A stretch of 64,000 bases of DNA from Patescibacteria group bacterium (lineage in GTDB: Bacteria > Patescibacteriota > Microgenomatia > JAMCZE01): assembly GCA_023485845.1 (NCBI GenBank), contig JAMCZE010000010.1, forward strand, positions 156,046-220,045. The letters run 5' to 3'. How positions within the stretch are numbered: the stretch's first letter is position 1; each line of letters starts with the position of its first letter. Positions 9,121 to 42,250 of this stretch are shown here, one piece after another. The position numbers and the translations under genes are program-made. The notes under the pieces were generated by a model. The model made no database searches and had not been told where the DNA came from. It worked only from the letters and a program-made list of their open reading frames with translations.

Positions 9121-9149
9121 TTGACAATCTTAAAAATACTTCCTACAAT
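9121..9149 (+). promoter_or_regulatory. sigma70-type promoter (TTGACA-17-TACAAT) with a 7-bp dyad operator (TATGAAT-GTAT-ATTCATA) just downstream, ahead of arsR
   Basis: Perfect consensus hexamers at 9121-9126 and 9144-9149. The dyad at 9149-9166 overlaps the arsR start region. Confidence 0.55.
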
Positions 9150-13906: not shown

Positions 13907-14620
13907 CTAAAAATTTTTACCAGTTCTGGAGATTTCGTCAATGAAACTTAAATTACCTTTAAAGGCTTTAACGATATTGATTTCTCTCATGAAAGCTTCC
14001 TTTGTCTGAAACGGTTTCGTGATGTAATTTTCTACTTCTGCTGCCTTAACCCACTCGTATTTACCTTCCTCACTTTCTACTAATTTACCTTCTGGATTTC
14101 TGAAAACGCATAACGCCAATAATAAATCGTCAAGTAATTCGCTCGTGGCTTCGTCAAGCGTGCAGTAGTGTAAAATTGCCACCACTTCCGGCTCACCGTT
14201 TAATCCTGTTTCTTCAAATAACTCTCTTTTCGCTGCGTCACCAAATCTTTCACCTAATTCCACTTTCCCTGCGGGAAAACCCTGACAACCATAAAATGGG
14301 TGTTTTAATCTAGTGTAAAGTAAAAACTTGGCGCCTTCCTTTTCTTCTTTTACACAGCACACTGCTACCCCAATTTTTGCTTGCTGGCGAATAGTTGCTT
14401 CCCCCAAATCCATACGTGCAGCAAATTTTTTCCCTTGTGTTGTTAAATAATATTTTCCGTCGTTTTTTTGAATACGACCTAATTTAATAAGCTGGTCCAA
14501 ATGAAACTGAAACTGGTTATTACCCATATCTTTATCTGGCTTAAGCTTGGTATAAGAGAGAGGCTGTTCGAAGGCAAGTTTCTTAATTATCTCAAGTTGG
14601 GTCTTATGTATATTCTCCAT
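13907..14620 (-). CDS. NUDIX hydrolase with an N-terminal winged-helix DNA-binding domain
   Basis: Nudix box GFPAGKVELGERFGDAAKRELFEETGL in the C-terminal half. The N-terminal roughly 90 aa is wHTH-like. Confidence 0.7.
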   Translation of the reverse strand: MENIHKTQLEIIKKLAFEQPLSYTKLKPDKDMGNNQFQFHLDQLIKLGRIQKNDGKYYLTTQGKKFAARMDLGEATIRQQAKIGVAVCCVKEEKEGAKFLLYTRLKHPFYGCQGFPAGKVELGERFGDAAKRELFEETGLNGEPEVVAILHYCTLDEATSELLDDLLLALCVFRNPEGKLVESEEGKYEWVKAAEVENYITKPFQTKEAFMREINIVKAFKGNLSFIDEISRTGKNF

Positions 14621-14889
14621 ATAAAGGGATTATACCTTGCTAGCAGCTCATTTCTAGTCTAGCCTTATTGACTACGCAGAAGATACTAGAACCGCCCTGC
14701 ATTTTCTTGGTAGTAGTTACTACTACAGTTCACTGGGATCTACTTGTGCAAGCATTACACAACTATAAACTTTTGAGCACAATAAGTTCGAATGTGTTCC
14801 ATCCAGGGCTGCCAATTTTCACTTTCAGAGTATTTAGCTACTATGTTGAATGGTACTGTCAAGTACCCCTTTTGTTGCACACTCTTTCT

Positions 14890-15654
14890 CTAAACCCGGC
14901 TTAGAAATTTTGCCTTGAATTTGACCGGGGAAGTCTTGAGCTTGGTGTGGATCCTCTCGTGGTTGTAATAGTTGATGGTTTTGTGAATAGCCTCCACAAA
15001 CTCGCCGATCGTCTCAAATCTTTCAAATTCCAATCCTAAGTCTGTTTTAAAGTTGTCGTAGAAGGATTCCTGGTAACCGTTCTCCCAAGGACTGGCTTTA
15101 GCAGACATGCTCACCTGGATTCCCAGGCCTTCTAAAAAGTTGGTGTAATCCTTCGAGTTGTACTCGGCTCCCTGATCAGTGTGAGCCACTACTGGTTTAC
15201 CCACTGTTTTAATGGCATCCAAGAAAGCCTCAAGAACCAACTCTGTAGTGTGCCTGGTGGAAATTGACCAGCCAACAATTTCCCGGGTAAACAGATCCAT
15301 AAAAGTGGCTAGGTAAATAATCCTCTGGTTCCAGGCTAGCCGGGTAAAATCCCCGGCAAAATAGACTCGGGGTTTGATGGGACAACTACCCTTAATTAGA
15401 TTGGGAAACTTTGACAGTGGATTTCCCCAATCTTTCTTTTTTGTCCACCTGGCCTTTCTCTTGTAGGGTTTAATCCCAAATAATTTCATCACTCGTCTGA
15501 CTCGTTTCTTCCCGATTTCCAAAGCCAAAGCTACTCTCCGGTGGCCATAACTAGGATTAGTTTCCAAGATCTTAAGGATTTGCTCTTTTAGAGCCGAATC
15601 TTTTGTCCCTTGCCTAAGGTTGTCGGTGTAAAGATTTCTTCGGGAGATGCCCAA
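14890..15654 (-). CDS. IS3-family transposase OrfB (DDE integrase core)
   Basis: rve-type core: D in HTDQGAEY, E in SPWENGYQESF. The frame is open upstream to the A-run. The track start is TTG. Confidence 0.85.
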   Translation of the reverse strand: MGISRRNLYTDNLRQGTKDSALKEQILKILETNPSYGHRRVALALEIGKKRVRRVMKLFGIKPYKRKARWTKKKDWGNPLSKFPNLIKGSCPIKPRVYFAGDFTRLAWNQRIIYLATFMDLFTREIVGWSISTRHTTELVLEAFLDAIKTVGKPVVAHTDQGAEYNSKDYTNFLEGLGIQVSMSAKASPWENGYQESFYDNFKTDLGLEFERFETIGEFVEAIHKTINYYNHERIHTKLKTSPVKFKAKFLSRV

Positions 15655-15706
15655 AGAATTGGAAATAAGGGACTTGGGTATTTGAGGAAGCTTGGCTTCG
15701 ACAATT

Positions 15707-15961
15707 TTACCTAAGTTTCTTTTTTTTTACCTTCTCCACTTCCAGAGACAAAACCCCAATGATCTCCTTTAGTTGCCGGTTCTCTTTTTTAAGTCTCAGG
15801 TGCTCAATCCAGCTGACTTTGTTGGTGGTGTTCCACCTAAGCCAGCCATAAATGGTTTTGGGGGAGATTCCGTAAGTTTGGGCCAGAGTGGCGGCAGATT
15901 CCCCGGATTTAATCTTGGCCAGGACCTCCTCTTTGACCTCTTTGGCAATAGCGGTTTTCAA
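15707..15961 (-). CDS. IS3-family transposase OrfA (HTH plus leucine zipper)
   Basis: 84 aa, HTH (LAQTYGISPKTIYGWLRW). It ends in the A9G slippery run GTAAAAAAAAAG. Confidence 0.85.
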   Translation of the reverse strand: MKTAIAKEVKEEVLAKIKSGESAATLAQTYGISPKTIYGWLRWNTTNKVSWIEHLRLKKENRQLKEIIGVLSLEVEKVKKKKLR

Positions 15962-16011
15962 AAATATTCACCCCCTTAAATAAGTGTCCTTAGTTTACAG
16001 ACACTGTGTGC

Positions 16012-16040
16012 ATTTTAAGGGGTACCTGTCCTACTGTCAA
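16012..16040 (-). promoter_or_regulatory. junction promoter formed by the abutted IS3 ends: TTGACA (16040-16035), 17-nt spacer, TAAAAT (16017-16012), reading toward orfA of copy A
   Basis: The -35 hexamer lies in the end of copy B and the -10 hexamer in the end of copy A. The 17-nt spacer was read directly from the sequence. Confidence 0.6.
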
Positions 16041-16067
16041 GTACCCCTTTTGTTGCACACTCTTTCT

Positions 16068-16832
16068 CTAAACCCGGCTTAGAAATTTTGCCTTGAATTT
16101 GACCGGGGAAGTCTTGAGCTTGGTGTGGATCCTCTCGTGGTTGTAATAGTTGATGGTTTTGTGAATAGCCTCCACAAACTCGCCGATCGTCTCAAATCTT
16201 TCAAATTCCAATCCTAAGTCTGTTTTAAAGTTGTCGTAGAAGGATTCCTGGTAACCGTTCTCCCAAGGACTGGCTTTAGCAGACATGCTCACCTGGATTC
16301 CCAGGCCTTCTAAAAAGTTGGTGTAATCCTTCGAGTTGTACTCGGCTCCCTGATCAGTGTGAGCCACTACTGGTTTACCCACTGTTTTAATGGCATCCAA
16401 GAAAGCCTCAAGAACCAACTCTGTAGTGTGCCTGGTGGAAATTGACCAGCCAACAATTTCCCGGGTAAACAGATCCATAAAAGTGGCTAGGTAAATAATC
16501 CTCTGGTTCCAGGCTAGCCGGGTAAAATCCCCGGCAAAATAGACTCGGGGTTTGATGGGACAACTACCCTTAATTAGATTGGGAAACTTTGACAGTGGAT
16601 TTCCCCAATCTTTCTTTTTTGTCCACCTGGCCTTTCTCTTGTAGGGTTTAATCCCAAATAATTTCATCACTCGTCTGACTCGTTTCTTCCCGATTTCCAA
16701 AGCCAAAGCTACTCTCCGGTGGCCATAACTAGGATTAGTTTCCAAGATCTTAAGGATTTGCTCTTTTAGAGCCGAATCTTTTGTCCCTTGCCTAAGGTTG
16801 TCGGTGTAAAGATTTCTTCGGGAGATGCCCAA
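16068..16832 (-). CDS. IS3-family transposase OrfB (copy B)
   Basis: Identical to 14890-15654. Confidence 0.85.
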   Translation of the reverse strand: MGISRRNLYTDNLRQGTKDSALKEQILKILETNPSYGHRRVALALEIGKKRVRRVMKLFGIKPYKRKARWTKKKDWGNPLSKFPNLIKGSCPIKPRVYFAGDFTRLAWNQRIIYLATFMDLFTREIVGWSISTRHTTELVLEAFLDAIKTVGKPVVAHTDQGAEYNSKDYTNFLEGLGIQVSMSAKASPWENGYQESFYDNFKTDLGLEFERFETIGEFVEAIHKTINYYNHERIHTKLKTSPVKFKAKFLSRV

Positions 16833-16884
16833 AGAATTGGAAATAAGGGACTTGGGTATTTGAGGAAGCTTGGCTTCGACAATT

Positions 16885-17139
16885 TTACCTAAGTTTCTTT
16901 TTTTTTACCTTCTCCACTTCCAGAGACAAAACCCCAATGATCTCCTTTAGTTGCCGGTTCTCTTTTTTAAGTCTCAGGTGCTCAATCCAGCTGACTTTGT
17001 TGGTGGTGTTCCACCTAAGCCAGCCATAAATGGTTTTGGGGGAGATTCCGTAAGTTTGGGCCAGAGTGGCGGCAGATTCCCCGGATTTAATCTTGGCCAG
17101 GACCTCCTCTTTGACCTCTTTGGCAATAGCGGTTTTCAA
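16885..17139 (-). CDS. IS3-family transposase OrfA (copy B)
   Basis: Identical to 15707-15961. Confidence 0.85.
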   Translation of the reverse strand: MKTAIAKEVKEEVLAKIKSGESAATLAQTYGISPKTIYGWLRWNTTNKVSWIEHLRLKKENRQLKEIIGVLSLEVEKVKKKKLR

Positions 17140-17332
17140 AAATATTCACCCCCTTAAATAAGTGTCCTTAGTTTACAGACACTGTGTGCATTTTAAGGGG
17201 TACCTGTCCACTTTATAAAGATAATGCAACCATAAGGCAAGCGGATTTCCCATTGTTAATTGATGTTTTTTTTGAAAATGCTAAGCCTAATATCCAAAAA
17301 CTTTTGGCTGTAGAAGCAGAAATTATTAGAGA

Positions 17333-17877
17333 GTGACACTCCTCGCAGCAAGCTGCGAGGCATCTGCATTGCTAAAATAGCCTGAGTTGGTCTTTTGATA
17401 TTTGGACATAGTCTTTTGGTCTTCCTTGGTTTCTGATGTACTTTTGGATGACTGTCTCAGAATTGCTTCGTCCTACTGAATTTACGAAATACCCGTCAGT
17501 CCAAAACTGGGCTCCCCAAAGGCTTTCCCTCAACCCGGCAACTCGTTTGAGAAGTTCCCGGGCCAGGATACTTTTGACCGTTCTGGCAATTTTGGTAGGA
17601 GAATATGTAGGCACTGACTGGATCAAAAAATGGACATGATCACCGTCGGCCCCAATCTCCACAAAATGCATCTCGTACCTTTGGGAAATTTCCTGACAGA
17701 TCTGTTTTAGTTGGGCATCCACCTCTGTCGAGATCACGAGTTGCCTTCCCTTGGCCACACAAACCAGATGGTACAAAAGCACCGAGACATTGTGCGCTTT
17801 GTGTATGTAGATACTCACGCATACAATTTTACCCTCTCGCGGCAAAGCCGCGGGGAATGAACCCTAAAAGAGATTCA
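17333..17877 (-). mobile_element. IS200/IS605-family insertion sequence, copy 2
   Basis: Identical to the 545-bp copy 1. Confidence 0.85.
17372..17845 (-). CDS. tnpA: IS200-like Y1 transposase TnpA (copy 2)
   Basis: Identical to 1594-2067. Confidence 0.9.
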   Translation of the reverse strand: MPREGKIVCVSIYIHKAHNVSVLLYHLVCVAKGRQLVISTEVDAQLKQICQEISQRYEMHFVEIGADGDHVHFLIQSVPTYSPTKIARTVKSILARELLKRVAGLRESLWGAQFWTDGYFVNSVGRSNSETVIQKYIRNQGRPKDYVQISKDQLRLF

Positions 17878-17899: not shown

Positions 17900-18355
17900 T
17901 CAGATAACCAGTTTTGCAAAAAGACTTTTGGAGGGAGGCGTGAGTTTAACCTTTGCTAATTCTTCAAGAGTAAACCATTTGTATTCTGACAATTCATCAT
18001 CAAGCTGAACTTTTACCTCACTGCTATTTCTATCATTGATGTCAATTCGATAGACGTTGAAATGCATTTCAACAAGAACCCTCTCATTTGTGTCCTTTAA
18101 GGTTTTTTCTGATGTTCCCGTTCCCTCATCATTAACAAGTTCAGTTGCGTACCCTTCAACCTCTAACCCTATTTCTTCTTTCAGTTCTCTTCTTAATGCC
18201 TGAGTCTTGTTTTCGCCTTGATCCACACCTCCTCCTGGAATATGCCAGCAATCAATATAAACTCCACCGCCAGTTGGATTCTTTTTTACCATCAATAATC
18301 TTTTATCTTTTGAAAAAAGTAAGCCCGATACAATTTCTCTCTTGATCGTTCTCAT
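17900..18355 (-). CDS. NUDIX hydrolase
   Basis: Nudix box GGGVDQGENKTQALRRELKEEIGL. 151 aa. Lies between IS200 copies 2 and 3. Confidence 0.85.
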   Translation of the reverse strand: MRTIKREIVSGLLFSKDKRLLMVKKNPTGGGVYIDCWHIPGGGVDQGENKTQALRRELKEEIGLEVEGYATELVNDEGTGTSEKTLKDTNERVLVEMHFNVYRIDINDRNSSEVKVQLDDELSEYKWFTLEELAKVKLTPPSKSLFAKLVI

Positions 18356-18380
18356 ATTATTTCTTTACGTTGTAATGTAA

Positions 18381-18925
18381 GTGACACTCCTCGCAGCAAG
18401 CTGCGAGGCATCTGCATTGCTAAAATAGCCTGAGTTGGTCTTTTGATATTTGGACATAGTCTTTTGGTCTTCCTTGGTTTCTGATGTACTTTTGGATGAC
18501 TGTCTCAGAATTGCTTCGTCCTACTGAATTTACGAAATACCCGTCAGTCCAAAACTGGGCTCCCCAAAGGCTTTCCCTCAACCCGGCAACTCGTTTGAGA
18601 AGTTCCCGGGCCAGGATACTTTTGACCGTTCTGGCAATTTTGGTAGGAGAATATGTAGGCACTGACTGGATCAAAAAATGGACATGATCACCGTCGGCCC
18701 CAATCTCCACAAAATGCATCTCGTACCTTTGGGAAATTTCCTGACAGATCTGTTTTAGTTGGGCATCCACCTCTGTCGAGATCACGAGTTGCCTTCCCTT
18801 GGCCACACAAACCAGATGGTACAAAAGCACCGAGACATTGTGCGCTTTGTGTATGTAGATACTCACGCATACAATTTTACCCTCTCGCGGCAAAGCCGCG
18901 GGGAATGAACCCTAAAAGAGATTCA
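18381..18925 (-). mobile_element. IS200/IS605-family insertion sequence, copy 3
   Basis: Identical to the 545-bp copy 1. Confidence 0.85.
18420..18893 (-). CDS. tnpA: IS200-like Y1 transposase TnpA (copy 3)
   Basis: Identical to 1594-2067. Confidence 0.9.
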   Translation of the reverse strand: MPREGKIVCVSIYIHKAHNVSVLLYHLVCVAKGRQLVISTEVDAQLKQICQEISQRYEMHFVEIGADGDHVHFLIQSVPTYSPTKIARTVKSILARELLKRVAGLRESLWGAQFWTDGYFVNSVGRSNSETVIQKYIRNQGRPKDYVQISKDQLRLF

Positions 18926-30038: not shown

Positions 30039-30161
30039 CCGCTAATCATAACATCTTTTAATTAGGGAGAGACCCTGCCGCCCCACAGGGTCTCTCCCTG
30101 CGAAGGTGCAAATTTTGTCAAATTGGAATAAGGGCTGTATAATCAATCTAATTACGAAATT

Positions 30162-40120: not shown

Positions 40121-40873
40121 ATGGGAAAAATTAAAACTGTCAAAATGGGTGATTTGGAAGCAGAAGAGAAAGCTCGGGAGAAAGCCGAGGTCAAACGTGA
40201 GCAAAAGAAAGCAGCCAAGGGAGAGATAAAAGAAGAAAAGCCAGAGACTAAAATCAAGAAAAAAGAGATCAAAAAAGCAGGCCGCGGCAAGAGATATCTT
40301 GAGGTGCGAAGCCTGGTTGACACCAAGAAAAAATATTCGATTGCGCAGGCGGTGGAATTAGTCAAGAAAACCTCAATTTCCAAGTTTGACGGCGCGGTGG
40401 AAGTGCACATTAATGTGGCAGACAACCTGCCTGCCGGCAGGCAGGGGGCTTTGCGCGGCAGTGTTGCTCTCCCCCACGGCGCGGGCAAACAGGTGCGCGT
40501 CCGCGTTGCTGACGACGAGCTAATTGCTAATCCAAAAATCGATTTTGACATTTTAGTTGCCAGTCCGGAGATGATGCCAAAACTGGCCAAGATCGCCAAA
40601 ATCCTCGGCCCGCGGGGGCTGATGCCCAACCCAAAGAACGGCACCATTGGTGATGATCCGGAAAAACTGGCCCTTCGACTCCGCTCTGGGCAGCAAAGCT
40701 GGAAAACGGAGACCGCTGCCCCGATTATTCACACCATTATCGGCAAAGTCTCCTTTGAACCCAAAAAACTGGAAGAAAACTTTTCCGCGTTGACAAAATC
40801 GGTCGGAACGGATAAAATAAAATCGCTTTTTATCAAAGCGACCATGGGGCCGAGTATTCAACTCGAACTCTAA
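40121..40873 (+). CDS. rplA: 50S ribosomal protein L1
   Basis: LRGSVALPHGAGK and ASPEMMPKLAKIAKILGPRGLMPNPK motifs. Confidence 0.95.
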   Translation: MGKIKTVKMGDLEAEEKAREKAEVKREQKKAAKGEIKEEKPETKIKKKEIKKAGRGKRYLEVRSLVDTKKKYSIAQAVELVKKTSISKFDGAVEVHINVADNLPAGRQGALRGSVALPHGAGKQVRVRVADDELIANPKIDFDILVASPEMMPKLAKIAKILGPRGLMPNPKNGTIGDDPEKLALRLRSGQQSWKTETAAPIIHTIIGKVSFEPKKLEENFSALTKSVGTDKIKSLFIKATMGPSIQLEL

Positions 40874-42084: not shown

Positions 42085-42250
42085 AGAACTATACTTTTCT
42101 AATTGTTTATATAACCAAACACATCATCTGTCAAGACACAAAATCAATAAAAAAAATTATTTTAAAATTTCGAGCGAATAAAAAGCGCAGACGAGGTACC
42201 GCGAGCGAAGCGAAGTGGTCAAAGAGCGAGCATTCTTATTGCGAGAAATT

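Follow-up and report, generated by a model that had tools for sequence, protein, structure and literature searches.

Insertion sequence (IS) dimers, and the promoters formed at their junctions, are textbook, hyperactive intermediates of copy-out-paste-in transposition and are known almost entirely from plasmid systems in Escherichia coli. Such dimers are seldom seen in genome assemblies, being both unstable and collapsed by short-read assemblers. In IS911 and IS2 the junction promoter (pjunc) is split, its -35 and -10 elements lying on either side of the joined ends (PMC3299598). Here we analyzed a 64,000-nt stretch (the window, whose positions are used as coordinates throughout) of contig JAMCZE010000010.1 in assembly GCA_023485845.1 of a Patescibacteria group bacterium, where two copies of an IS3-family element stand head to tail. 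We read this arrangement as a chromosomal dimer, IS-gta-IS in gene orientation, that was probably made by the transposase itself. This would place a known type of junction, that of IS911, IS2 and IS30, in an uncultivated, groundwater-type, small-genome bacterium of the candidate phyla radiation (CPR) and in a natural population, and it invokes no new mechanism.

Self-comparison of the window showed that copy A (14857-16031) and copy B (16035-17209), each 1175 bp long and both on the minus strand, are identical with 0 mismatches. The repeat period is 1178 and the run of identity extends from 14854 to 16031, so that the repeated unit is the triplet tac plus the IS and the plus-strand layout reads ggTAC-IS-TAC-IS-ACTtta. 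In gene orientation copy B lies upstream, and it is the counterpart of the single copy present in other assemblies; the flank ...ataaagt-GGACAGG in the single-copy loci L001 and L159 matches the window from 17210 onward. Copy A is the downstream copy, has tac on both sides and would be the one driven by the junction promoter; the tip of its right inverted repeat (IRR) is 14857 (minus-strand …CTTGACA-3') and that of its left inverted repeat (IRL) is 16031 (5'-GGACAGG). No further copy or fragment of the IS3-family element was found within the 64-kb window.

The IRL of copy A (15993-16031, minus strand) and the IRR of copy B (16035-16073, minus strand), each about 36-39 nt, abut across a spacer of three nucleotides (16032-16034), which is tac on the plus strand and gives CTTGACA-gta-GGACAGG in gene orientation. 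This spacer is the same triplet as the flank beside the IRR of copy A (14854-14856), which either supplied the spacer or is half of a 3-bp target duplication that encloses copy A. An inverted-repeat search found the two ends 75% complementary, with arms 9 nt apart as scored, and the junction folds into a long palindrome, as abutted inverted repeats (IRs) should. The junction-spanning sequence is CTTGACAGTAGGACAGG, the boundary of right flank and IRL is ATAAAGTGGACAGG and that of IRR and left flank is CTTGACAGTACCATTC. Identical direct copies, abutted IRR and IRL, and a 3-nt spacer equal to the IRR flank together characterize an (IS)2 or IR-IR junction of the IS911, IS2, IS30, IS21 and IS256 type, a class that allows spacers of 1-4 bp. 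One end of the duplication falls exactly at an IS tip and the other 3 nt outside the opposite tip, and no microhomology was found between the duplication boundaries ...gtcc-actt and ...atgg-tact. Chance is excluded as the source of the tandem repeat and of its register. Boundaries placed in this way, without microhomology, rule out slippage and point to transposase chemistry.

A promoter scan of 14600-17500 returned as its best site TTGACA-17-TAAAAT, at 16040..16012 on the minus strand, with 11/12 consensus matches. The -35 hexamer TTGACA (16035-16040) consists of the final 6 nt of copy B, the IRR tip, and the -10 hexamer TAAAAT (16012-16017) occupies positions 15-20 of the copy A IRL, 51 nt upstream of the TTG start of orfA. 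The abutted ends thus assemble a putative promoter directed into the transposase genes of copy A. The equivalent site upstream of copy B, as for any single copy, depends on the flank and is poorer (TTTATA-18-TAAAAT, 9/12 matches). A preliminary description of this DNA had proposed two identical 1175-bp IS3-family copies, with tac between them and before the first, and hexamers TTGACA and TAAAAT 17 nt apart at 16040-16012 pointing toward orfA of copy A; the self-comparison, with its identity run from 14854, and the promoter scan bear out both proposals.

Consensus sites with 17-nt spacing and no more than one mismatch number 5 in the window, versus 0.44 expected. The other four, each TTGACA-17-TATAAT with one mismatch, are at 9121-9149 (+), 30115-30143 (+), 40790-40818 (+) and 42106-42134 (-), the first of them lying 21 nt before an arsR-like gene that leads an arsD/arsA cluster. 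The excess over expectation, together with the site before the arsR-like gene, indicates that consensus promoters are apparently used by the host and suggests that this CPR bacterium employs canonical sigma-70-type promoters.

We next consider whether the two promoter halves belong to the element's family. Relatives of OrfB in one-genome-per-species contigs came almost all from metagenome-assembled genomes (MAGs) of Patescibacteria (CPR), among them Woesebacteria, Amesbacteria, Levybacteria, Microgenomates and others, with the closest at 79% identity, and the host is on this ground most likely a CPR bacterium. The ends of the clade were set from repeat-broken contigs and multi-copy sets as IRL 5'-TGACAGGTACCCCTTAAAAT... 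and IRR ...GGGGTACTTGACA-3'. With OrfB as the sole anchor, and hence no bias as to the ends, the TTGACA tip was present in 28 resolved relatives, 26/28 of which also carry TAnnnT at IRL positions 15-20 (TAAAAT, TAAACT, TATAAT, TATACT, TATAGT and others), while the two TTGACA-tipped relatives lacking it have CATAAT and AATAAT there. Among 7 resolved, more distant elements tipped TTCCA, TTGCA or CTCCA, TAnnnT was found in 0/7. TTGACA and TAnnnT are thus present jointly or both missing, which argues that the promoter is split by design of the family and did not arise by chance. With 14 IRL bases ahead of the -10, a 3-nt spacer yields the optimal 17-nt spacing and spacers of 2-4 nt yield 16-18.

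The ends of the element are asymmetric, as the IRR ends in CA-3' and the IRL, with its tips at 16025-16031 and 17203-17209, starts with GG, versus the canonical 5'-TG...CA-3'. In 74 metagenome IRLs the tip was GG in 39, TG in 30 and AG in 3, and it was constant inside multi-copy lineages at different insertion sites, that is, lineage-specific. This constancy across sites indicates that the G tip belongs to an active element, and the GG tip would accordingly be compatible with transposition. An alternative IRL, TGGACAGG, with the preceding T inside the IS, was rejected: the base ahead of GGACAGG varies within one lineage and is a in copy A. One metagenome contig (L095, ERZ1292629...68047) has, about 37 nt upstream of the IRL of an intact copy, a second, degenerate sequence resembling an IRL, TGGACAGGTACTCCCC, which may have been left by a previous insertion at that site (IR targeting).

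Other assemblies allowed the junction to be followed across samples. The NCBI MAG GCA_023379465.1 contains the same locus on contig JAMCTM010000031.1, at 100% identity over 12.1 kb, with one IS copy (...ataaagt-GGACAGG...CTTGACA-gtaccattc). Two public runs were represented by Logan assemblies, made independently with k=31. That of SRR10278331 includes a 14.1-kb contig (SRR10278331_96865) in which the right flank, a single IS copy and the left flank follow one another with no break. In SRR10252151, the IS forms a separate contig of exactly 1178 nt (SRR10252151_488079), which starts at the G of the IRL tip, matches the IS at 100% identity and ends in GTA, and the left-flank contig (SRR10252151_44272) starts at IS position 1149, its first 31-mer being 27 nt of IRR, then gta, then c. 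Reads holding both IRR-gta-GGACAGG and IRR-gta-ccattc are expected to branch the graph after ...CTTGACAgta, into c (flank) or G (next IRL), and before GGACAGG, into t (flank) or a (spacer). The observed breaks match these k=31 branch points, which argues that a molecule with abutted ends is represented in the SRR10252151 reads. A second copy at an unrelated site was rejected as the cause, since it would break the contigs at the IRR tip and not 3 nt further, and an unrelated flank starting with gta is expected in 1 of 64 cases.

By this reading of the contig breaks, the raw reads of SRR10252151 include the abutted-ends molecule, whereas in SRR10278331, which samples the same strain, it is missing or too rare to be detected. 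Samples of one strain thus differ in the junction, and this polymorphism may hint at instability or activity of the junction. The preliminary description had also recognized the (IS)2 architecture of IS911, IS2 and IS30, a view now supported by the co-occurrence of the promoter halves in relatives and by the junction graph signature in an independent assembly. Its further question, whether reads would reveal a single copy and hence an artefact, received a divided answer: the breaks in SRR10252151 imply the junction, and SRR10278331 and GCA_023379465.1 hold a single copy. An apparent homopolymer indel between the window and L001, considered as a clue to long reads, proved to be an alignment artefact at the IS end, the sequences being 100% identical. 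A literature search on the run and assembly accessions gave no match.

We favor a transposase-made chromosomal dimer, which would be a polymorphic and probably recent allele. The junction survived the abundance filter and graph cleaning in one assembly and was the main path of the window assembly, which, judged from assembler behavior, favors a dimer at appreciable frequency. Chromosomal IS30 dimers are sufficiently stable to spread through a population before they dissolve (PMC9333248). Several observations weigh against this interpretation. The same strain carries a single copy in GCA_023379465.1 and SRR10278331, with flanks 100% identical over 12.1 kb. Abutted IRR-IRL junctions were found among relatives in 0 of 80 genome loci and 0 of 73 metagenome loci. 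A search of metagenome contigs for the abutted ends of the subgroup (GGTACTTGACA-N0-10-CAGGTACCCC) gave 0 matches and its IRL-only control 73 loci, so the subgroup is present in metagenomes without another assembled dimer or circle junction. Instability is expected of dimers that carry a strong junction promoter. The putative donor end, the IRL, has a non-canonical CC-3' terminus, and promoter activity, slippage and transposition are all deduced from sequence. Finally, a de Bruijn graph looks alike for a dimer and for a single copy accompanied by minicircles, and a loop traversed once prints a dimer either way; read depth, too, is alike for a dimer fraction f and for circles at c=f.

This last point leads to the alternative that survives best, namely that the chromosome holds one copy and that abundant excised minicircles (IRR-gta-IRL, formed by the same chemistry) contributed a loop which the assembler threaded once. 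We consider it unlikely, though it deserves serious attention. The graph signature in SRR10252151 is identical for circles plus a single copy, single-copy contigs of the same strain exist, and the spacer equals the flank of this locus, as it would in a circle copied out of it (PMC3299598). Minicircles, however, are non-replicating and as a rule very rare, and from what is known of assembly pipelines the junction would need at least several percent of genome equivalents to survive the filters as the main path. A heritable chromosomal dimer attains such a frequency more easily (PMC9333248).

It is very improbable that the tandem is purely an assembly artefact, a collapsed or duplicated repeat to which no molecule with abutted ends corresponds. 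Identical tandem repeats are a classic product of mis-assembly, and the other assemblies have one copy. Yet contigs run through the IS in two assemblies, which makes it a single-locus element in this strain and leaves an assembler no ambiguous repeat that could lead it to make up an end-to-end join. In addition, the breaks in an independent k=31 assembly fall exactly at both points that the junction predicts, and the 3-nt spacer reproduces the strand-transfer signature of the IS3 family while giving the exact 17-nt promoter spacing. Spontaneous tandem duplications of ~1 kb do occur, but a transposase-independent duplication of the 1178-bp segment containing the IS, by replication slippage or unequal crossing-over, is hardly credible: one end point coincides exactly with an IS tip, the second lies 3 nt outside the opposite tip, microhomology is lacking, and the probability of both boundaries falling there by chance is negligible. 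Even taken together, the artefact and the transposase-independent duplication account for very little of the probability.

Two routes could have produced the transposase-made dimer. In the first, the 3'-OH of the IRL end (…CCTGTCC-3', plus strand) would attack this strand at a point 3 nt beyond the IRR, yielding a dimer if the target lay on a sister copy (site-specific dimerization) and a circle if it lay in cis. Strand transfer of the IS911 type predicts a spacer derived from the flank, without microhomology (PMC3299598). Because the spacer gta is the IRR flank, the IRL would have been the donor; an IRR donor would give agt. In the second route, an excised minicircle would insert into the gta next to the resident IRR and duplicate 3 bp (the tac/tac of copy A), much as IS30 circles insert next to a resident IR (PMC9333248). 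The two routes yield exactly the same sequence.

Once formed, the junction promoter would replace the weak, flank-dependent promoter of the single copy and raise transcription of orfA and orfB in copy A. Read-through from orfB of copy B across the junction would also be possible, as no terminator was predicted between the copy B orfB stop and the junction. OrfAB would be made once slippage at a run of nine A residues (A9) had shifted the message out of orfA and into +1. The joined ends would in turn serve as the substrate for paste-in, so that more OrfAB could lead to insertions, adjacent deletions, inversions or dissolution to one copy.

Each copy carries both transposase genes. In copy A, orfA (15707-15961, minus strand) encodes 84 aa with a helix-turn-helix (HTH) and begins with a TTG at 15961 preceded by the ribosome-binding sequence AAGGGGGTG, and orfB (14890-15654, minus strand) encodes 254 aa from its first start codon, with a DDE catalytic domain (rve/rve_2/rve_3) and an open frame that extends back to 15726, just within the A9 run. 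In copy B the corresponding genes are orfA (16885-17139, minus strand; 84 aa, HTH) and orfB (16068-16832, minus strand; 254 aa, rve DDE), the latter stopping 33 nt ahead of the IRR tip. The domains identified were rve, rve_2, rve_3 and HTH_21. The fused OrfAB matched the NCBIfam IS3 transposase model NF033516 in one stretch covering profile positions 1-368/369 at 241 bits (cutoff 160). Models for IS481, IS21 and IS630 all scored below their cutoffs. By profile match, the element is an IS3-family IS.

The classic IS3 layout consists of orfA and orfB joined by -1 recoding at A6G or A7. Here the overlap reads GTA AAA AAA AAG, containing the putative slippery A9 run (15720-15728 in copy A and 16898-16906 in copy B, minus strand), and the frame of orfB is +1 to that of orfA, such that recoding is required and the two fuse on losing one A or gaining two. 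The same run (TCAAAAAAAAAGA) with orfB in +1 was found in 45/51 distinct relatives, and in the few relatives with A8 orfB is in -1. Conservation on this scale argues against a sequencing slip. IS elements with transcriptional slippage on long A/T runs have reportedly been described by Baranov et al. (2005, Genome Biol). While not definitive, the conserved A9 with orfB in +1 suggests that the transposase is expressed through transcriptional slippage and not through classic -1 frameshifting, with ribosomal +1 frameshifting as an alternative.

IS3-family elements usually generate a target-site duplication of 3-5 bp. The resident copy lacks one (agt-IS-gta; window flanks 14854-14856 and 17210-17212), and among about 60 relatives with resolved ends a 3-4 bp duplication was seen in only 4 (L006 ttg, L016 cgat, L147 gaa and L148 ttt). 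Long-read MAG copies and multi-copy sets are among those that lack a duplication, and a search for target duplications at shifted registers gave no convincing signal. Chimeric contigs through repeats may explain some of the missing duplications, and junction-driven intramolecular rearrangements that split them may be another cause. Copy A is bracketed by tac/tac, either as a duplication or as a copied spacer.

These features can be joined in a wider proposal, which we advance tentatively and regard as doubtful: a CPR-specific clade of IS3 elements that transposes mainly via chromosomal IR-IR junctions or dimers, here caught in mid-event within a natural population, with a hard-wired split promoter, an IRL donor ending in CC-3', A9 slippage to +1 and almost no target-site duplications. 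If it held, the missing duplications could be traces of intramolecular events that the junction drives (adjacent deletions or inversions) or could reflect integration without staggered target cleavage.

The window also contains a second type of element. Three IS200-like elements of 546-549 bp (1551-2099, 17332-17877 and 18380-18925) are 100% identical, each with a 157-aa Y1 transposase (NF033573, 124 bits) and the terminal hairpin CCTCGCAGCAAGCTGCGAGG, and they are unusually small for IS200. Two of them, in direct orientation, bracket a gene for a 151-aa NUDIX protein (17900-18355) and begin 122 bp from the IS3 dimer. The contig of GCA_023379465.1 breaks 127-128 nt inside IS200-like repeats at both of its ends. 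When the flanks were joined in silico to look for a disrupted host gene or empty site, and the 122-bp right flank was searched for a NUDIX remnant, only non-significant similarity emerged (E about 0.3-0.5). The interval 17210-17331 weakly resembles the 5' end of the NUDIX gene (18300-18355) over 23 nt at 78%, again non-significant, and this similarity may reflect a degraded NUDIX paralogue or a shared IS200 target.

Taken together, the locus suggests that a positive-feedback circuit of the IS911 type operates in CPR bacteria and that this locus is transposing now. Along with the public read sets, it allows IS activity to be measured in a natural CPR population.

Comparison with described systems places the locus among several of them. 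Judged by sequence likeness, it shares with slippage-type ISs a conserved A9 at the orfA/orfB overlap, a downstream frame out of reach of a simple -1 tRNA slip, and A8 variants with orfB in the other frame. Like (IS30)2, it is a head-to-tail dimer with an IR-IR junction and a strong Pjunc (predicted here), of a kind formed by site-specific dimerization or by circle insertion beside a resident IR; chromosomal (IS30)2 dimers persist, spread in the population and dissolve to a single copy (PMC9333248). IS30, in contrast, has a transposase of another family, a 2-bp spacer and a single ORF (open reading frame). With IS2 it shares a Pjunc (predicted here) with a strict need for 17-nt spacing, which the spacer length fixes, and asymmetric ends of which one has a non-canonical terminal dinucleotide (PMC3299598). 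The non-canonical IRL of IS2 (TA-3') acts as recipient only, with a spacer of 1 bp, whereas here the non-canonical IRL (CC-3') was apparently the donor and the spacer is 3 bp. The parallel with IS911, known for its dimers, minicircle junction and pjunc, extends further: both are IS3 elements with OrfA and OrfB, both have abutted ends with a 3-bp spacer taken from the flank of one end, and in both the -35 lies in the IRR and the -10 in the IRL, forming a strong promoter only when joined (as predicted here). In IS911, as would be the case here, either end can be the donor. Unlike IS911, in which orfB is reached by -1 recoding at A6G, this element has orfB in +1 behind an A9 run; its IRL tip is GG and not TG, and its resident copy lacks a 3-bp duplication. 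It also differs from IS911 in its setting, an uncultivated CPR host in a natural population and not an engineered plasmid.

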